The position numbers and the translations under genes are program-made. Below the pieces are notes generated by a model, which saw only the letters and a list, made by a program, of their open reading frames with translations, searched no databases and was not told the DNA's origin. A DNA stretch of 64,000 bases. It comes from Raja brachyura (taxonomy: Eukaryota). Location of the stretch: assembly GCA_963514005.1 (NCBI GenBank), contig OY740794.1:46872001-46936000 (forward strand), written 5' to 3'. Positions 9,620-54,213 of this stretch are shown here, in pieces (positions within the stretch are counted from its first letter, which is position 1; every line of letters begins with the position of its first letter).

Positions 9620-9979
<360 letters not shown>

Positions 9980-14943: not shown

Positions 14944-15016
14944 GCAGGAGGAAGTTCAGGACTTCTGATGGACCTTGCAGCTAATGAAAAAGCAGTCCAT
15001 GCAGATTTCTTTAATG
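14944..15016 (+). CDS. COPS9: COP9 signalosome subunit 9, coding exon 2
   Basis: TTTTTCAG acceptor, [24 protein letters not shown] plus one G, GTGGGT donor (phase 1). Confidence 0.97.
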
Positions 15017-18158: not shown

Positions 18159-18196
18159 ATTTTGAAGACCTCTTTGATGACGATGATATTCAGTAA
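18159..18196 (+). CDS. COPS9: COP9 signalosome subunit 9, coding exon 3
   Basis: CTTTAG acceptor, (D)FEDLFDDDDIQ*. Exon lengths 63+73+38=174 nt give 57 aa plus stop. Candidate ATTAAA polyA signal at 18344-18349. Confidence 0.97.
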
Positions 18197-25658: not shown

Positions 25659-27113
25659 CAGTGTATTCAGGTGTTTAGAAATTGTTGCAAAGTAATTTAA
25701 AAGAAATAACTGAAATATCACATTTACATAAGTATTCAGATCCTTTACTCAGTACTTTGTGAGGCACCTTTGGCAGCGATTACAGCCTCAAGTCTTCTTG
25801 GATATGACGTTACAAGCTTGGCATACCTGTATTTGGGTAATTTCTCCCACTCTTCTCTGCAGATCCTCTCAAGCTCCGTCAGATTGGATGGGGAGTATCG
25901 ATGCACAGCTATTTTCAGGTCCATCCAGAGATGTTTGATCTGGTTCAAGTCCGGGCTCTGGCTGAGCAACTCAATGACATTCACAGACCTGTCACGAAGC
26001 CACTCCCGCATTGTCCTGGCTGTGTGCTTAGGGTCATTGTTCTGTTGGAAGGTGAACCTCTGCCCCAGTCTGAGGTCCAGAATGCTCTGGAACAGGGTTT
26101 CATCAAGGATCTCTCTGTACTTTGCTCCGTTCATCTTTCCCTCGATCCTGACTAGTCTCCCAGTTTCTGCCGCGGAAAGACATCCCAACAGCATTATGCT
26201 GCTACCATGATGCTTCACCGTAGGAATGGTATTGGCCAGGTGATGAGCGGTGCCTGGTTGGCCAAAGAGTTCAATCTTGGTTTCATCACCAGAGAATCTT
26301 GTTTCTCATGGTCTGAGAGTCCTATAGGTGTCTTTTGGCAAACTCCCAAGTAGGCTGTCATGTGCCTTTTACTGAGGAGTAGCTTCCATCTGGCCGCTCT
26401 ACCATAAAGGCCTGATTGGTGGAGTGCTGCAGATATAGTTGTCCTTCTGGAAGGTTCGTCCATCTCCACAGAGGAACTCTGGACCTCTGTCAGAGTTCTT
26501 GGTCACCAAAGCCCTTCTCCCCCGATTGCTCAGTTTGGCCGGGCAGCCAGCTCCATGAAGATTCCTGGTAGTTCCAAAGGTCTTCCATTTAAGAATGATG
26601 GAGGCCGCTGTGCTCTTCAGGACCTGCAATGCTGCAGAAATTATTTTATACCCTTCCCCAGATCTGTGTCTCGACACAATCCTGTCTCGGAGGTCTATGG
26701 ACAATTTCTTTGTGGCTTTTTTTTTGCTCCGACGGGCACGGTCGACTGTGGGACCTTATATAGACAGGTGTTTGCCTTTCTAAATCATGTCCAATCAATT
26801 TAATTTACCACTGGTGGACTCCAATCAAGTTGTAGAAACATCTCAAGGTTAACCAATGGAAACAGAATGAACCTAAGCTCAATTTGGAGTGTCAAAGCAC
26901 AGGGTCTGAATACTTAATGTAAATGTGATATTTCAGTTATTTCTTTTTAATTACTTTGTAAAAATTTCCAAACACCTGTTTCCGCTTCTTCATTCTCGGG
27001 TATTGTGTGTAGATTGTTGATAAAAAAATTTTTTAAATCCATTTTAAAATAAGGCTGTAACATAACAAAATGCGGAAAAAGTGAAGGGGCCTGAATACTT
27101 TCTGAATGCACTG
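25659..27113 (-). mobile_element. Tc1-family (IR/DR) DNA transposon, inactive
   Basis: TA target duplication. Termini CAGTGTATTCAG and revcomp CAGTGCATTCAG. Frameshifted transposase: LRDRIVSRHRSGEGYK, KHHGSSIMLLGC, FQQNNDPKHT, SPDLNQIKHLW. Confidence 0.93.
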
Positions 27114-28730: not shown

Positions 28731-31700
28731 TCTATATTATTAAAAGTCTAATCTTGACCACTTCCTGTTTGCGTTTTATATTGATTTTAGAAAAAACGCT
28801 ACCACATATGGCTGTGATTTTTGGCCATCTTACCCAGAGTCCACCTTCGCTCGTCAGGTGCCAAAGATTTTTCCCATCGATGAGAAATAAAAGAGTTATT
28901 AGTGTTAAAAAATGTTGAGATTCTCTCTCCTGTCAATAACGCCATGAAGGTCACACCACTTCTGGTGGGAGGGACTATAAAACCCAGAAGTGTGGGCGTG
29001 GCTCAGGGTCTGCAAGATGGAGGAGGGAGAGGTCACGACTTGCTGTCTTTAGTGGCCTTGCACCCTGCTTGAAATGGTATGAAACTGCAATTTAATTTGG
29101 TGGCCTTGCACCCTGCTTGAAGTGGTAAGAAACTGCATTTGAATTTGGTGGCCTTGCACCTTGCTTGAAATGGAATTTCAAGAAATAGCCGTGAGTCAAC
29201 TGCCAGCACAATAGGCTTGAGTGGCTGAGCTGCCATCACAAGAATCCATTCGGCCCACAATGTCCATACTAGCCCTCAGGAAACCAGTCCCTTCAGCCCA
29301 CAACACCCATACTAGCGCTCCAGAAAGCCCTGCCCCCCCTCCCCCCACTGGCCACCAATATTGGAATTGGTGGAGTATTTCGTTAGGCGACCAGCACTCC
29401 CGTGTGATGCTGGGACCGAACGGGTCCCACTTGGTCTCGTATACCTCTATTGTATCACATTTCAGCCTCCTTCACTTCAGGGAAAGCAGGTGAGTCTTCA
29501 TGTTCAGACCACGCCACTGTAGGAACCAGAAAGCTTCAATATTAATACAACATATTTTCCTTCTAGTTTCCCTCTCCCTTGACTCTCAGTCTGAAGAATG
29601 GTCTCGACCTGAAATGTCACTCATTCCTTTTCTCGAGAGATATGCCTGTTCCGCTGAGTTACTCCAGCAGTTTATGTCTATCTTCTGTGTAAATCAGCGT
29701 CTGCAGTTCCTTCCCACACATTGTTTCCTTAGTGGTGGCTTGCCTTTCTACTGTGAATAATTGGCTTAATCCGGTTCGTATATCTTACTCTGGCCTCCGT
29801 AAATTGCCCCTAGTATGTAGTGAGTGGATGAGAAATGCGATAACATAGAACTAGTGTGAACGGTCGGTGTGGACTCGTTGGGTCGAATGACCTGTTTCTT
29901 TGCTGTATCTCTAAACTAAACTTGAATCTGTGAAGCGCTCTGATGGAAATATAAAAATACTTCACCCGTTGTGTTACCAACTGTTCTTTGGTTCTTCTTA
30001 ACCAACTCTTCATCTGTACCACTTTGAGATATTCTTGTCCAGGCTTCTGCCAATCCTACTCACAAACTATTCACTGGAATTATGTGAATGAATGGGAGAT
30101 GATAGATATACTGTTCTCAGGGCATCCCAACATGTTTCACATCAAAGGAACTATATTTGAAGTCAAGACAATGTCTCAAAGAATTTGTCTTTGCTTAAAA
30201 AGGAACTGTGGTAACTCATCAGCAAGCTTTATCCATAATGTAAATCTACTTCTTTGTTGGAACTCCAAAATGTCACAAAGGTGGAGACTAGAAGTATTAC
30301 ATTTCCTGCGTACATTGCACATTGAAAACACAGCATGTCTTTGTCGGTATCTCTAAGTAGGAAGGAAGTGGGAGCTTGATCGGGTATCTAATTAATATTC
30401 AGCAATTATATTAGTAACGTGGGATTGTAGAAATGAAAAAGGATGAAAAATATGCGATGTTCCTGCAAGCCTTCAACGTTCTGAAGGGTTTTTCGAGCAC
30501 TCATGCTGAAAGACTGTTTAGATTAGCTGGTAGTTTTATAGGGGCAAAAAAAAAGTTAGGAGGCATTATTTCCATACAGAAGGTTATCTGGCGGATTCTG
30601 TTGCAGGAGACTTATTTACACCACTTAAAATGAATTGATTGTGTTTGTAAAGGAATTATATAAAGAGGATGAGGATGGCAATGGCACATGCACAATGGAG
30701 AGAATCACTTTGTTCAACTGTTTTAATAGCTCTGATCGTCTGTGCCTTGTTACAGTACTGTGAAAGCTGCCCGTCAAACTCCCACCCAATACCAACCTCA
30801 GTGCTGGTTGCAAATGGTAGAAGTGAAACTATGACTGTACGAAGTCAGTGGGTATTTTTAAATTGGCAAAAATGCAACAGGTGGTTAAATATTCTTAAAA
30901 TTGTATTCCAAATTGCTCCTGGTAGTTTGAATGCTATGTACTTAATTGCAGCATTTTTTTGTAATAGAAAAGGAACTGCAGATATTGGTTTATGCAAAAG
31001 ATAGACACAAAATGCTTGTGAAGTCAGCAGGTCAGGCAGTATCTCTGGAGAAAATGGATAGGTGACATTTCGGGTCTTCAGACTGAAGAAGGGTCCCGAC
31101 CCGAAACGTCACCTATCCATTTTCTCCAGAGATGCTGTCTGACATGCTGAGTTACTCCAGCAATTTGTGTCTGGCTGCAGCATTTTCTGCTTTTATTTAA
31201 AATTTCTGAACAGCTGCAATCCGTTTGGTTTTATGGTTTGGTGAGGTTGAACCTATTATAAGTATCAAAGAAAGATCATTATATTTTTCTAAGAACTATA
31301 CCTCATGTAGTATGTGGTAGTATTTTGCCTAAAAATATATGATACTCGGCATTAAATCACATATGGCATTAATGGAAATTTAGAACGTTGTGTCATTATT
31401 GAAATCATGCCTTCTGCCGAGTTTTAATCTCAGGTAAAGAAACTGTTTTGGGAATAATTGGAGCATTCTCTTGTATTCCCTGAATCCTATTCGCCATCAC
31501 AAATAATTTGTGTACTGATTAACACAATCTCAGAAATAGCCATTGCACTCCTGGTGATATTTTCCAATTCCTCATTTCTCAAAAGTTGTTGAGTCTGAAA
31601 AAAAAATTACAATGGGATTTAATGAAATAATTTTTGCATTTAGAAGTGACTGTTGTATTTTGTATCTATAGCGACGTTATAAATAAATTATATATTAAAG

Positions 31701-41257: not shown

Positions 41258-41327
41258 ATGGGCGATGCAAAGGAGAACTTTTTTTCTTTGATCCTGGCTA
41301 CTGTGGTTCTGACCATGTACTTACCCG
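41258..41327 (+). CDS. Actinodin-like protein, first coding exon (signal peptide)
   Basis: TTTTCCACAG acceptor at 41228, AACATGG start, MGDAKENFFSLILATVVLTMYLP with a hydrophobic core, GTGAGT donor (phase 1). Confidence 0.8.
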
Positions 41328-41655: not shown

Positions 41656-41783
41656 NNNNNNNNNNNNNNNNNNNNNNNNNNNNNNNNNNNNNNNNNNNNN
41701 NNNNNNNNNNNNNNNNNNNNNNNNNNNNNNNNNNNNNNNNNNNNNNNNNNNNNNNNNNNNNNNNNNNNNNNNNNNNNNNNNNN
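41656..41783. other. Assembly gap (N run) within an intron
   Basis: 128 N characters. Confidence 0.99.
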
Positions 41784-44942: not shown

Positions 44943-44987
44943 ACATGCTGGAGGCTAACGTTCTTCGCCGGCTCTTGAAAAGGGATG
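44943..44987 (+). CDS. Actinodin-like protein, coding exon 2
   Basis: TTTCTTTCAG acceptor, (D)MLEANVLRRLLKRD, GTAAGT donor. Phase 1-1, compatible with the flanking exons. Confidence 0.8.
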
Positions 44988-47909: not shown

Positions 47910-48061
47910 TTGATGAAGACAAAATAGCTGTGGAGCCCAAAGAAGCAAACAATTTTTTAAGCAAATTGATACGCTCAAAACGGCATACAAAAAGGCATCA
48001 ATTTCCCCCTGATTTCTGGAAGGCATATCAGCATTTTTCTGACATAGGATTTGATGAAGGA
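47910..48061 (+). CDS. Actinodin-like protein, propeptide/conserved-domain exon
   Basis: TTTCCTGCAG acceptor, (V)DEDKIAVEPKEANNFLSKLIRSKRHTKRHQFPPDFWKAYQHFSDIGFDEG, GTAAGT donor (phase 0). Furin-type site RSKR. Confidence 0.9.
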
Positions 48062-48113
48062 GTAAGTATCTAATATTCTTGTGATAGAGGCATCGATATT
48101 TACTAACTATGAG

Positions 48114-48418
48114 GGCAGTACAGTGGTGCAGCGGTAGAGTTGCTGGCATAATGCGCCAGAGACCTGGGTTCGATCCTGACTCCAGGTGCTGTCTGTACAG
48201 GGTTTGTACTTTCTGCCTGTGACCGCATGTGTTTTCTCCGGGTGCTCCAGTTTCCTCCTACATTCCAAAGACGTACAGGTTTGTAGGTTAATTGGCTTCT
48301 ATAAATTGTAAATTTTCCCTAGTGTGTTGGATAGCGCTAATGTATAGGGTGATCACTGGTTGCCTCAGACTCAATGGGCAGAAGAGCCCGTTTCCATGCT
48401 GAATCTTTAAAGTCTAAA
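48114..48418 (+). mobile_element. HE1/V-SINE-like element
   Basis: GTGGTGCAGCGGTAGAG A-box, GGGTTCGATCC B-box and GTACAGGTTTGTAGGTTAATTGGC core. Confidence 0.75.
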
Positions 48419-48524
48419 GGAACTAAGAGGTGCACATGGCAATCTGCTAGTAATTGTTCATGAAAGAGGTAAGCCATTTAGGACTGAAATGATGAAAAAC
48501 GTTTTCACCCAGAGAGTTGTGGCA

Positions 48525-50335
48525 AAATTTTTCATCATCTCAGTCCTAAATGGCCTACCTCTTATTCTTAAACTGTGACCCATGTTTCTGGACTCCCCCA
48601 ACATCGGGAAAATGTTTCCTGCATCTAGCTTGTCCAAACCCTTAATAATTGTATATGTTTCGATAAGATCTCCTCTTATCCTTCTAAATTCCAGTGAATA
48701 TAAACCCAGTCAATCCATTCTTTCATCATATGTCAGTCCCGCCATCCCGGGAATTAACCTGGTGAACCTACGCTGCATTCCATCAATAGCAAGAATGTCC
48801 TTCCTCAAACTAGGAGACCAAACCTGCACACAATACTCCAGTTGCAATCTCACCAGGTCCCTGTACAACTGCAGTAGGACCACCTTGCTCCTATACTCAA
48901 ATCCTCTCACTATGAAGGCCAACATGCCATTTGCTTTCTTCACTGCCTGCTGTACCTGTATGCTTACTTTCAGTGACTGGTGTACAAGGACACTTAGGTC
49001 TCATTGTATCCCCCATTTTCCTAATCTGACACCATGCAGATAATAATCTGCCTTCTTGTTCTTGTCACCAAAGTGGATAACCTCATTATACTGCATCTGC
49101 CATGCATCTGCCCACTCACCCCATATATCCAAGTCACCCTGCAGCCTCATCGCATCCTCCTCGCAACTCACATTGCCACCCAATTTTGTGTCATCCGCAA
49201 ACTTGGAGATGTTACTTTTAATTCCTTTGTCTAAATCGTTAATATATATTGTAACTGTGGTCCCTACACTGAGCCTTGCTGCACGCTACAAGTCACAGTC
49301 TGCCATTCTGAAAAATATTTGTTAATTCCTACTCTCTACTTCCTGTCTGCCAACCAGTTCTCTATCCATGTCAATACCCCACCCCAATACCATGTTCTCT
49401 AATTTTGCACACTAATCTCTTGTGTGGGACCTTGTTATAGGGTTTTTGAAAGTCCAGATACACCACATCCACTGGTTCTCTCTTATCTATTCTACTTGTA
49501 ACATCCTCAAAAAATTCCAGATTAGTCAAGCATGATTTCCCCTTCTAATCATAAATCCATGCGGACTTTGACCGATCCTGTCACTGCCTTCCAAATGTGC
49601 TGCTATTATATCTTTACTAAATAACTCAAGCATCTTCCCCATTACTGTTGTCAGGCTAACTGGTGCATAATTCCGTGTGTTCTCTCTCTCTCCTTTCTTA
49701 AAAAGTGGGGTTACATTAGCTGCCCTCCAGTCCACAGGAACTGATCCAGAGTGTATAGAACATTGGAAAATGATCACCATTGCATCCACAAGTTCTAGGG
49801 CCACCTCCTTGAGTACTCTGGGATGCAGAACTTCAGGCCCTGGCGATTTATCTGCCTTCAGTCACAGCAGTTTACCTAACACCATTTCCTGACTAATGTG
49901 GATTTCCTTCAGTTCCTCCCTCACTCCAGTGACATGGTCCTCTAGTATTTTTTGGGAGATTCTTAGCGAAGACAGAACCAAAGTACTTGTTTAACTGGTC
50001 TGCCATTTCCTTGTTTCCCATTATAATTTTACCTGTTTCTGACTAAGGGATCTACATTTGTCTTCACTAATCCTTTCCTCTTCACACATCTAAAGAAGAT
50101 ATTACACTCAGTTTTATATTCCTCGCAAGCTTTCTTTCGTGCTCTATTTCCCCCCCCCCCCCCCCTCTTAATTAACCTCTTTGTCCTCCTCTGTTAAATT
50201 AACATAGAAACATAGAAATTAGGTGCAGGAGGAGGCCATTCGGCCCTTCGAGCCAGCACCGTCATTCATTGTGATCATGGCGAATTCTAAATTTCTCCCA
50301 GTCCTTCAGTTTACTGCTTTTTCTGGCCAATTTAT
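48525..50335 (-). mobile_element. CR1 LINE, degraded, in the last actinodin-like intron
   Basis: VPVDWRAANVTPLFKKG and KKANGMLAFI..LEYCVQVWSP in fragmented frames. Confidence 0.9.
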
Positions 50336-50421
50336 TAATATGCCTGTTCCTTGGATTTAACGCTTGGATTTAACATTGGATGTTATTATAACTGCTTCTG
50401 TTTGCCTCGTGTATTTTCCAG

Positions 50422-53400
50422 GTATATGAAATGGACAGAACGTATCTGCAATATATTCAGGCCAAGAATAGAGACGAGTCTGCCCAGTCGCATCAAGCAC
50501 TCCTGCAGCATCTACGGGAAGCGGAATGTGACACCACAAAAGACCCTGACTGTCAGCCAAGTGTTCTTCACAAACGTTTACTTGCCGCGCAGAGGGCATG
50601 CGATCCTTACAGAGATCCGCATTGCAGGACGGAAACTCCGCCGTGTGATCCAACCAAGGATCCATATTGCAGCCCCAGGGCACTCTCCTGTGATCCAAAG
50701 ACAGACCCCTATTGTAGAACGGACGCGTACGCTTGTGACCCCAGGACAGATCCTTACTGCAGAAGAGCAGCGGCATATTCCTGCGATCCCAAGACCGATC
50801 CCAATTGTAGAACGGCGGCAGCCCATTCCTGTGACCCAAAGATAGACCCCTACTGCAGAACAGAGTCATCCTCCTGTGATCCCAGGAGAGATCCATATTG
50901 CAGAGCAGAACCCTACCCGTGCGACCCACAAAAAGATCCCTTCTGCAGAGTAGCGGCACATGCATGTGATCCAAAGACGGATCCCTATTGCAGAACAGAG
51001 GCATACCCTTGTGATCCCCGGAGAGACCCGCATTGTAACGTTGAGCGCTGCGATCCATATCGGGACCCCAGCTGTAAAACTCAATTGCAACCATGTGACC
51101 CGCAGAAAGATCGCTATTGCATCCCGGAATTGCATTCTAGGCAGTTGGCACCATTCCCATGTGACCCGCGATACGACTCAGCGTGTAATCAGCAATCGTA
51201 CACTTATGCACAGTATGCCGAATTGGTGAACACCTACTGCAACCCCTACGACCCAGACAGCCCGCACTGCCAGGCGTTGGTTGCATACATCAAGCAGACG
51301 TGTGATTCGTACACGGATCCCAACTGCTTTCCAAGGTCAAAGCAGGAAGTGCATTCTGCACGCCCCGCCTGTGACCCTGCAAGGGATCCCTATTGCCGCT
51401 CTGCTGTGGCTGTGTCTAAAACACCATATGATTGTGACCCATACTATGACCGCAACTGCCATTCGGCATTCCACCCCAAGGACGAGCCTGCCCCAGACCC
51501 AGAGTGTGACCCCAGGTCTGGCCGTAGCTGTAATCCCGACAGACCGGAATATGGTGGTGACGACGAGCTTCGCTGTGATCCATATCATGATCCCAACTGT
51601 CGTCAAAATGTCAAATCCATTGACCGAGTTCGCAGGCCGCCAGCCTCATATAGAGGCCGGACCAAGGAAGGCTATCCCTGTGACCCCCACTATCATCCGG
51701 ACTGCTATCCCACCCGTCATTCCCAAACTGCCACTGCTTGTGACCCGTCCGATGATGACTGTCGTGGACATGAGGAAAATAATCATGTACCGGAACACGG
51801 CCGGAATTGTGACCCTACACGTGATCCTTATTGCGGTGAAACAGCAGCCACGGAGAACTGTGACCCATACACTGATCCCGAGTGTAACGCCCGATACCAG
51901 GCTAGGCAGCGACAAAGAGACTTAGAGAACTGTGACCCATACACTGACCCCGAGTGTAACGCCCGATACCAGGCTAGGGAACAACGAAGAGTGGATATGG
52001 AGAACTGTGATCCGTACACTGATCCCGAGTGCAGATCACAGTCCAGGGCTCGGGAACAGCACAGAGTGGACATGGAGAACTGTGACCCATACACTGACCC
52101 CGAGTGCAACGCCCGATATCAGGCTAGGGAACAACGAAGAGACTTAGAGAACTGTGACCCATACACAGATTCAGAGTGTTTTTCCCGATATCAAGCCAGG
52201 CTGCGACAAAGAGGGGACACAGAGAACTGTGATCCACGCACTGATCCCGAGTGCAGATCACAATCCAGGGCTCGGGAACAGCACAGAGACTTAGAGAACT
52301 GTGACCCATACACTGATCCCGAGTGTAACGCCCGATATCAGGCTAGGGAACAACGAAGAGACTTAGAGAACTGTGATCCACACACAGATCCAGAGTGTTT
52401 TTCCCGATACCAGGCCAGGCTCCGACAAAGAGGAAGCTCGGAGAACTGTGACCCATACACTGATCCCGAGTGCAGATCACAATCCAGGGCTAGGGAAGAG
52501 CAAAGAGTGGACATGGAGAACTGTGACCCGTACACTGATCCCGAGTGTTATTCCCGATACAGAGCTAGACAGGAACAGAGAGGATATTTGAAGAGCTGTG
52601 ATCCACGCACTGATCCCGAATGCAGATCACAATCCAGGGCTAGGGAAGAGCAAAGAGTGGACATGGAGAACTGTGACCCGTACACTGATCCCGAGTGTTA
52701 TTCCCGATACCAGGCTAGGGAACAACAAATACGAGATTCCGAGAACTGTGATCCATACACGGATCCCGAGTGTTATTCCCGGCACCAAGCTAGACAGCGA
52801 CAAAGAGAAGACACTGAAAACTGTGACCCATACACTGATCCGGAGTGTTATTCCCGATACCAGGCCAGGGAACAACAAAGAGTAGCCTCTGAGAATTGTG
52901 ATCCACGCACTGACCCCGAATGTAATTCCCAAACTCGGTCCAGAGAGCAGCAAAGAAAAGCCACTGAGATCTGTGACCCATACACTGATCCCGAGTGTTA
53001 TTACTCTCTATATTACGCCAGGGAAAAGCAGAGAGCTGGTGCCGAGAATTGTGACCCGTCCGCTGATCCTGAGTGTGAATCCCAATCCCGCACTAGGGAG
53101 CAAGAAAGAGGAACCACTGGGAACTGCGACCCTTCCGGGGATCCCGATTGTCAACTCAAAAGGCCTTCAAGAGAGCAAGAGGGAACAGCCCCTGAGAAAT
53201 GTGATCCCTACACTGATCCTGAGTGTTATTCCCGATCACATGCCAGGGAGGAAGAAAGAACAGCAGCGGAAAATTGTGATCCTAACACTAACCCTGCATG
53301 TAATTCCCAAACCCATAGCAAACAGCAAGAGAGAACGGACGTGGAAACTTGTGACCCGTACACTGATCCTGAGTGTTATTCCCGATCCCACGCTGGAGAG

Positions 53401-54213
53401 GAAGAAATAGCCCGTGAGAAGTGTGACCCATACACTGATCCTGAATGCTACTATTCTTTATACCGGGCTAGAGAGCAGGAAAGAACGACCACAGAAAACT
53501 GCAATCCTAATTTTGAATCAGATTGTGATGGATACGAGTCTGACGTTAACGAGCAATACCGGACAGCCGCAGAAGATTGTGACCCAAACTATGACCCAAA
53601 CTGCAACAACCGACCAACTAACTCAAATGAATCAAATCGCGATTGCCCATCTGACGTGGATCCTGATTGCAGCGGCACTCCTTCCCACAGCAGTGAGAAA
53701 ACAGACACCGAAGAATGTGACCCTTATGACCCCTACTGTGGTGGAGACGCAATGGATTATCATCCATCAGAGAAGGCCTGTGACCCTGACTACGACCGTG
53801 ACTGTGCCGCATCCCAGTCTCACGAGGACGACCAAGTGCACAAAGAAGACTGCGACCCGCTCTATGACTCCAGCTGCCACGATGAAGAGGAGGGTGTGTA
53901 TGAAACAGACTCTGACTGTGATCCCGACTATGATGTCGATTGCCACGTGCAGCCATTCGCCTTTAAGGATGAAGAGCTCGATTCCCAAGATACGGGACGC
54001 TATGAAATGATCTGTGATCCAGACCTTGAATACTCATGTCCTTTCGAGAATGATGCCAATGATGTGACAACATCTTACGATGACTATCACCCAGCATATA
54101 ACCCTTACAGTGCAGGGTATGATAAACTGTATCAAGGCGATCAGGAGACTGATGGAACTGAAAAGGAAGATGATTCCCAAGGAAATCCAAACGAATCTGA
54201 CGATAAAATTTAA
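50422..54213 (+). CDS. Actinodin-like (elastoidin-type) protein, terminal repeat exon
   Basis: TTTTCCAG acceptor at 50421, phase 0 (VYEMDRTYLQY..). Uninterrupted 1263 codons with about 53 C(D/N)PxxDPxC-type motifs, the signature repeat of fish actinodins. Paralogue identity (and1/and2/etc.) not determinable here. Confidence 0.9.
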   Translation, partial: VYEMDRTYLQYIQAKNRDESAQSHQALLQHLREAECDTTKDPDCQPSVLHKRLLAAQRACDPYRDPHCRTETPPCDPTKDPYCSPRALSCDPKTDPYCRTDAYACDPRTDPYCRRAAAYSCDPKTDPNCRTAAAHSCDPKIDPYCRTESSSCDPRRDPYCRAEPYPCDPQKDPFCRVAAHACDPKTDPYCRTEAYPCDPRRDPHCNVERCDPYRDPSCKTQLQPCDPQKDRYCIPELHSRQLAPFPCDPRYDSACNQQSYTYAQYAELVNTYCNPYDPDSPHCQALVAYIKQTCDSYTDPNCFPRSKQEVHSARPACDPARDPYCRSAVAVSKTPYDCDPYYDRNCHSAFHPKDEPAPDPECDPRSGRSCNPDRPEYGGDDELRCDPYHDPNCRQNVKSIDRVRRPPASYRGRTKEGYPCDPHYHPDCYPTRHSQTATACDPSDDDCRGHEENNHVPEHGRNCDPTRDPYCGETAATENCDPYTDPECNARYQARQRQRDLENCDPYTDPECNARYQAREQRRVDMENCDPYTDPECRSQSRAREQHRVDMENCDPYTDPECNARYQAREQRRDLENCDPYTDSECFSRYQARLRQRGDTENCDPRTDPECRSQSRAREQHRDLENCDPYTDPECNARYQAREQRRDLENCDPHTDPECFSRYQARLRQRGSSENCDPYTDPECRSQSRAREEQRVDMENCDPYTDPECYSRYRARQEQRGYLKSCDPRTDPECRSQSRAREEQRVDMENCDPYTDPECYSRYQAREQQIRDSENCDPYTDPECYSRHQARQRQREDTENCDPYTDPECYSRYQAREQQRVASENCDPRTDPECNSQTRSREQQRKATEICDPYTDPECYYSLYYAREKQRAGAENCDPSADPECESQSRTREQERGTTGNCDPSGDPDCQLKRPSREQEGTAPEKCDPYTDPECYSRSHAREEERTAAENCDPNTNPACNSQTHSKQQERTDVETCDPYTDPECYSRSHAGEEEIAREKCDPYTDPECYYSLYRAREQERTTTENCNPNFESDCDGYESDVNEQYRTAAEDCDPNYDPNCNNRPTNSNESNRDCPSDVDPDCSGTPSHSSEKTDTEECDPYDPYCGGDAMDYHPSEKACDPDYDRDCAASQSHEDDQVHKEDCDPLYDSSCHDEEEGVYETDSDCDPDYDVDCHVQPFAFKDEELDSQDTGRYEMICDPDLEYSCPFENDANDVTTSYDDYHPAYNPYSAGYDKLYQGDQETDGTEKEDDSQGNPNESDDKI
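51853..53499 (+). repeat. Coding minisatellite, about 22 units of 72-78 bp (ENCDPYTDPEC plus R/E/Q-rich spacer)
   Basis: Recurring GAGAACTGTGACCCATACACTGATCCCGAGTG, with all length variation in multiples of 3. Confidence 0.95.

Follow-up and report, generated by a model that had tools for sequence, protein, structure and literature searches.

An actinodin gene beside COPS9 in the skate Raja brachyura and its probable family link with otospiralin and augurin

Actinodins are treated as fish-only genes, and their loss is tied to the fin-to-limb transition, in passages of two papers (PMC13120675, PMC4764851); the first states that and1 and and2 are required for actinotrichia (PMC13120675), and the second gives C(N/D)PxxDPxC as the repeat motif of the family (PMC4764851). 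Otospiralin is described in part of one study as an inner-ear protein of unclear function, its ancestry being called unknown (PMC4815520), and passages on augurin (ECRG4) present it as a hormone-like signal that carries a putative furin site (PMC10088197). Here we analyze a stretch of 64,000 nucleotides of Raja brachyura DNA (contig OY740794.1; G000:C14:46872001-46936000, hereafter the window) that harbors beside COPS9 what, judged from its sequence, is an intact actinodin gene of the and1/2 type and an ordinary member of the known family. Its N-terminal domain (N-domain) points to a superfamily of actinodins, otospiralin and augurin; this link is probably real and apparently unreported, a full-text literature search having returned no paper that connects actinodin with otospiralin or ecrg4 among the matches listed, with most subscription papers outside its coverage.

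The actinodin gene and its otospiralin-like motif

The gene model comprises four predicted coding exons on the plus strand (41258-41327, 44943-44987, 47910-48061 and 50422-54213) that join into a single open frame of 1,352 amino acids (aa). Exon 1 supplies the ATG and the hydrophobic core of a predicted signal peptide and ends in phase 1 at a GT donor (41328), and the 45-nt mini-exon that follows (phase 1-1) carries an ANVLR motif at the likely signal-peptidase site. The core exon (47910-48061, phase 1-0) encodes a pro-segment, the furin-type dibasic site RSKR (read at aa 60-63), a first helix and a Gly turn, and the last coding exon contributes 1,263 aa with a Cys-Asp-Pro repeat array. The Chiloscyllium orthologue P0002 is collinear over the 48061^50422 junction, and tblastn with P0002 gave the two further, upstream coding exons; an open reading frame (ORF) at 30651-31004, considered as the signal exon, was rejected once these had been located. 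A run of 128 N (41656-41783) lies within the first coding intron and leaves the model exons untouched. The pro-segment follows a pattern A-x-x-F-L...R-x-K-R (47940-47990), which may resemble the propeptides of Gla-type secreted proteins.

An earlier note on this DNA had proposed that splicing 48061 to 50422 creates a motif matching otospiralin without gaps at 10 of 26 positions. The splice is real, with GT at 48062, a pyrimidine tract and CAG ending at 50421, and phase 0, and it yields exactly the 26-residue string given there. The first half of this helix-Gly-helix motif (48011-48061) is recognized from the sequence and by profile comparison, and its second half (50422-50448), with the second helix, from sequence and predicted structure; the phase-0 intron inside the motif (48062-50421) has the same position in the and3/4 and augurin genes of this genome and is absent from otos. 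The motif stands as well. Its count had been made with a human sequence; against 10 retrieved fish otospiralins the ungapped identities number 7-9 of 26, a weak match for a single pair. The Q-H pair of the proposed QHF match is the consensus of neither family: Q is missing from the first column in 14 of 21 actinodins, Y occupies the second in 16 or more, and E-Y is found in all 10 otospiralins. The note had named observations that would speak against kinship, namely shared residues not conserved within each family, no significant profile match, and no linkage of COPS9 with actinodin in other fishes; of these only the first was seen, and in part, at the Q-H pair.

Taken alone, the window protein does not identify itself as a relative of otospiralin. 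Its two exons, scanned separately, gave no match to Pfam OTOS, and against our own OTOS profile it scores 8.7 bits on its first 150 aa and 3.9 bits at full length, neither of which is significant; it lies below the 27-bit cut-off of Pfam OTOS (PF15182), for which the true otos of the genome scores 96.8 bits. It also lacks the short length, the PYWPYS lead-in and the single core exon of otospiralin. In these sequence comparisons the otospiralin match is significant at the family level only.

Family-level comparison with augurin and otospiralin

An N-domain profile built from the window gene, its shark orthologue and one and3/4 exon was searched against 1.84 billion proteins and returned 75 matches at E<=0.001. 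Named matches among 30 proteins looked up are actinodin1/2 of lungfish, coelacanth, gar and teleosts (best E 3e-29), actinodin3 of rays, sharks and teleosts, and augurins of ray, frog and camel. Word-based searches with the N-domain returned P0002 alone, and the ESM Atlas, queried with the 50-aa exon, gave no usable match. From the 75 matches we kept 28 actinodin-type sequences and nine augurins, to which the window protein was added; P0014, P0030 and P0032, which are unrelated repeat proteins, and fragments of single exons were dropped before profiles were made. The otospiralin set consists of 10 sequences, all from fish and none from tetrapods, and the actinodin profile called A3 has 16 rows. 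One sequence, P0040 (CAM9136012.1, on a 31-kb contig labelled Lampetra planeri), was included in the local profiles and kept outside A3 and the tree; it is an actinodin3 with 65-75% identity to several teleost And3 proteins, and is probably contamination, not a lamprey actinodin.

The evidence that the actinodin N-domain is homologous to augurin is strong, and stronger than that for otospiralin. The core exon of the window gene matches Pfam Augurin (PF15187) at E 6.6e-6 and 26.7 bits, against a cut-off of 27; P0002 scores 33.2 bits, several actinodins 27-32 and true augurins 80-190. The large search recovered augurins at E 7.7e-5 to 9e-4, and hhalign aligns the actinodin and augurin families with P 8e-10. 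Since P0002 already bears a precomputed PF15187 label, the actinodin-augurin link is latent in databases. Augurin shares with the window gene the pro-segment, the furin-type site, the first helix, three intron positions with their phases, and an N-x-L mini-exon: in this genome the augurin mini-exon has 48 nt and phase 1-1 and shares with the window gene an N at codon 6, the augurin core exon is phase 1-0, the last intron of both genes falls at the same profile position (64/65), and the phases run 1-1-0 at matching places. In contrast to the window protein, augurin has no Cys repeats and is retained in tetrapods, and its His/Tyr-rich C-terminal tail ending in VNYDDY has no equivalent in the window protein, where the repeat array takes its place. 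In the last augurin exon of the skate (L013 ~1665, minus strand; G000:C6 ~72359665) there is an in-frame TAG 13 codons in, after which conserved sequence continues to the normal end; this is either a nonsense allele or an assembly error.

For otospiralin, the profile-profile comparison suggested in the earlier note was run over all three families and gives an actinodin-OTOS score of 40.85 in hhalign with P 1.5e-7 (P 2.6e-6 in the tool version), where 200 column shuffles reach at most 20.9, 200 hydrophobicity-preserving shuffles 21.8 and the reversed profile 11.7. A3 detects all 10 otospiralins at 18.0-22.8 bits, each as a single domain. Against 177,635 PDB sequences the same profile returns six rows at E<=10, of which three APPBP2 entries reach 20.3 bits from two domains (12.2 + 7.6) and the others at most 13.6 bits; the best single domain in the three alignments shown is 12.2 bits. 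A larger local actinodin profile scores the otospiralins at 21-27 bits (22-30 when shark rows are removed; reversed OTOS at most 6.9), and none of 20,000 local shuffles of otospiralins reaches 21.4 bits (19,466 scored, maximum 18.1). In a six-frame set of 10,762 ORFs drawn from 334 kb of the genome, the otos exon (21.3 bits) is the only strong match that is neither actinodin nor augurin, the best decoy standing at 7.0. In the reverse direction, the highest PDB decoy of the OTOS profile is a Gag protein (12.0 bits), and 9 of 27 actinodins rank above it; at 12.0 bits, the similarity to gag p30 that has been cited for otospiralin is lower than the scores of these nine.

The alignment of the two families is gapless from W(-5) through the Gly turn, and its common columns are W(-5), D, F, Y/F, (S)IG and E, so that the W-x5-DF..Y/F..IG helix-Gly-helix of otospiralin is in register with that of actinodins. 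AlphaFold2 models (mean predicted local distance difference test scores of 79 and 67) both predict a helix, a two-residue Gly turn and a helix, at 32-42 and 45-79 in actinodin and 16-29 and 32-45 in OTOS, with the interruption falling on the Gly of the alignment; Foldseek returned nothing from the PDB at E<=0.001 for either model. In the ESM Atlas, three clusters of augurins (0.81-0.82) come closest to an otospiralin once OTOS clusters are set aside, which we take as a lead only. The genes agree further in their 5' parts. The coding exons of otos are a signal exon, a 27-nt phase 1-1 mini-exon with ANVIR (its counterparts being the 45-nt and 48-nt mini-exons of and1/2 and augurin) and a core exon that starts in phase 1 and includes a dibasic site; otos and and1/2 have the same phases at their first two introns, and the ANVLR form of the motif is carried by the window gene and by elephant-shark and3/4. 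Otospiralin resembles the window gene in its signal exon and phase-1 mini-exon, in the dibasic site of cartilaginous fishes, and in locus and strand; it differs in its size of about 90-105 aa, in having no pro-helix, repeats or helix intron, and in its PYWPYST lead-in.

A number of observations weigh against homology with otospiralin. The match covers only about 33-47 columns of an aromatic-rich helix, and helical hairpins are a frequent fold. When 24,736 Pfam families are allowed for, the hhalign P corresponds to a modest E of about 0.004-0.06, and with and1/2 or and3/4 alone P is 6e-5 and 2e-4, respectively. No otospiralin occurs among the 75 matches of the large search; Pfam OTOS matches on actinodins are weak (six proteins, E 0.016-0.54), with an unrelated repeat protein at E 0.018; 18 of 27 actinodins, the window protein included, fall below the best decoy of the OTOS profile; and there is no match between the augurin and OTOS profiles (hhalign P 0.37; at most 2.8 bits). 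At the gene level, the otos core exon has no phase-0 intron, the ANV(L/I)R motif was observed in cartilaginous fishes only, the retrieved teleost otospiralins have no dibasic site, and phase-1 introns following signal exons are common. The shortness of the match, the missing intron, the failure of augurin and OTOS to match directly and the lack of otospiralins in the large search would all fit a convergence of short secreted amphipathic helices in genes that are neighbors by coincidence, the homology of actinodin with augurin being kept. We nevertheless regard such convergence as unlikely: shuffles that preserve hydrophobicity attain half the hhalign score, otospiralins score higher than every single-domain decoy observed in the PDB and every decoy among the local ORFs, the alignment runs without gaps from W(-5) through the turn, and the mini-exon motif and the gene linkage would have to be additional coincidences. 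Homology of the actinodin N-domain with otospiralin, on a match that is good but short, is in our judgement decidedly probable. Of the single family drawn up in the earlier note, the actinodin-augurin side is strong and the actinodin-otospiralin side good, whereas augurin and otospiralin have no direct profile match, so that the link between them runs via actinodin.

Gene type, neighborhood and family origin

With a separate and3/4 gene on contig C50 and an augurin gene on contig C6, the window gene is assigned to and1/2. It shares with And1/2 proteins (zebrafish and1/and2, lungfish QNR56071.1, coelacanth and gar) the signal peptide, the dibasic site, the N-domain, the C(N/D)PxxDPxC repeats and a position adjoining COPS9 and otos, and differs from them in its length (1,352 aa and 35 strict repeats versus at most 739 aa and 14 repeats in the relatives retrieved), in having no W(-5), and in an augurin-like D-I-G-F-D-E turn. 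And3/4, with which it has the N-domain and the phase-0 intron in common, is short, with few repeats, another second helix and another locus. The window protein contains 106 cysteines, and the repeat array of its last coding exon shows DNA periods of 45 nt and 75 nt. At 51852-52998 a 75-nt unit is present in 15.5 copies with a higher-order period of 225 nt (79% matches), in an array far larger than those of relatives.

A tree on 72 columns sets the window and Chiloscyllium proteins beside augurin and outside bony-fish and1/2, and Pfam Augurin is the best match of both, as would be expected if this were an augurin-like gene that gained its repeats separately in cartilaginous fishes and not a true actinodin. 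The repeats, however, are those of the actinodin family, the sequence past the intron is of the and1/2 type, the position adjoining COPS9 is that of teleost and1, and the genome has a distinct augurin gene on C6. Sequence past the intron and synteny favor the and1/2 assignment, and a separate gain of repeats by an augurin-like gene is largely refuted and very improbable.

The window gene lies 3' of COPS9, as the earlier note had it: COPS9 (MYEOV2) is encoded on the plus strand by exons at 9824-9886 (sequence reading), 14944-15016 (approximate ends; Pfam MYEOV2 E 1.2e-11) and, as last coding exon, 18159-18196 (approximate ends; motif scan). The guess that otos lies on the 5' side of COPS9 was also correct, as the true otos (Pfam OTOS 96.8 bits) was found there, ending about 2.1 kb upstream of the window; the otos exon shares 90% identity with a stingray protein and 85-86% with two shark proteins. 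The order on the plus strand is otos, COPS9 and and1/2, with 12 kb and 23 kb between them, followed by a collagen/C1q gene on the minus strand. The linkage holds in this genome and, as neighbors within one segment, in teleosts, for which part of a study places otos, myeov2 and and1 together (10.1101/265538). NDUFA10 was looked for and not located. A mouse table lists Ndufa10, olfactory receptors, Myeov2, Otos and Gpc1, with actinodin not among the listed genes (PMC3420870); in the skate, where glypican genes occur on the contig of the window but at a distance of 11 Mb, the Otos-Gpc1 adjacency of this table does not hold. About 16 kb 5' of otos, at the place of mouse Gpc1, there is an Ig V-set-like exon (L010:126-551, minus strand). 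The gene just 3' of the window (L015:177-5420, minus strand) combines collagen and C1q domains; its signal peptide is followed by a long Glu-Ala/Glu-Pro repeat, and the gene presumably resembles adiponectin. Between COPS9 and the actinodin gene, broken Tc1-like transposase frames were seen by eye (25700-26800, minus strand), and fragments resembling long interspersed elements are scattered over the whole window. An intronless 158-aa open frame covering UPF0193 positions 81-217 (L047:2500-2973, minus strand) is possibly a retrocopy.

The and3/4 gene (G000:C50:1733700-1747340; L023, L011; minus strand) lies between MCM7 and a gene that, by its sequence, appears to be COPS6 and that has the Pfam domains JAB and MitMem_reg; upstream exons of this and3/4 gene were not found. 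COPS6 and MCM7 are adjacent on human 7q22, which is paralogous to 2q37/3q, and C6 and C14 carry one glypican pair each. As and1/2, and3/4 and augurin lie on three paralogous-looking contigs, they were likely spread by vertebrate genome duplications; the split of otos from the actinodins is likely older than that spread, and is possibly a local duplication preserved at COPS9.

The earlier note went further and proposed otospiralin and actinodin as ancient tandem paralogues at COPS9. Of this, linkage and homology are supported, while the tandem origin itself is plausible but unproven. That the two genes arose there as tandem duplicates and have been paired ever since would explain their common strand, the single small gene and short distances between them, and the teleost linkage, and two related genes are unlikely to lie so close by chance; a lamprey Otos and a second gnathostome Otos paralogue, the latter with no entry for skate or catshark in the same table (PMC13188829 Table S15), would make otos old enough. 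On the other side, COPS9 sits between the two genes, an intron loss in otos is required, and an approximately unbiased (AU) test rejects none of the three placements of OTOS, as sister to and1/2 (p 0.70), to and3/4 (p 0.63) or to augurin (p 0.11). Furthermore, no otos copy was found in the 160 kb around and3/4, with its COPS6 and MCM7 neighbors, nor a second otos in the genome. On this evidence we hold a tandem origin at COPS9 to be evenly balanced.

Tetrapods and a possible role in collagen matrix

And genes are stated to be absent from tetrapods in passages of two papers (PMC13120675, PMC4764851), and the loss of the repeat-bearing copy proposed in the earlier note agrees with these statements for and1/2, but a protein of the and3/4 type is on record in a newt. 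One match of the large search (P0031, E 5.4e-10) is XP_078527378.1 of the newt Lissotriton helveticus, encoded on a 922-Mb sequence. Its alignment to ray actinodin3 spans 243 columns (E 1e-43, as compared with 3e-16 for lungfish and1/2), its closest matches are shark sequences rather than teleost ones, and its N-domain shows 53-60% identity with and3/4 of shark, ray and sturgeon. In the 72-column tree it groups with and3/4, although placement with and1/2 (p-AU 0.076) is not formally rejected, and its repeats are degenerate (no strict and three loose). By its sequence this single record is clearly a protein of the and3/4 type and, if confirmed, would be an actinodin in a tetrapod. No urodele actinodin is described among the literature matches listed, and the term does not occur in one newt genome paper.

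A mechanism for the hairpin and repeats, drawn by analogy, stands at about an even chance. Actinodin would be secreted, its signal peptide removed, and RSKR cut by a furin-type protease; cleavage would expose an amphipathic hairpin rich in aromatic residues, which would dock on the collagen fiber or nucleate it, and the Cys-Asp-Pro units, about 50 in number, would fold into disulfide loops that cover the fin fiber and cross-link it. Otospiralin would correspond to this hairpin alone, lacking pro-helix, internal intron and repeats and acting in collagen-rich matrix, and augurin to the hairpin with a different tail. Otos is reported in catshark chondrocytes in part of one study (PMC13188829), and in the zebrafish skeletal matrix proteome (PMC3946537). 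The full picture would make actinodins, otospiralin and augurin one vertebrate family of secreted helical-hairpin matrix proteins, with otos and actinodin as an ancient tandem pair at COPS9, tetrapods keeping the repeat-less members and newts a real and3/4, and otospiralin as a collagen-fiber organizer, the inner-ear counterpart of the head of a fin-fiber protein. Taken as a whole it is tentative and falls somewhat short of an even chance.

The newt record, if confirmed, would date the loss of and3/4 after the origin of tetrapods and contradict its published absence, and the position of and3/4 between COPS6 and MCM7 predicts where tetrapod remnants would lie. If the family link is true, the common domain would give actinodins an origin and surviving tetrapod relatives, and otospiralin would gain a testable role in collagen matrix, with named residues.

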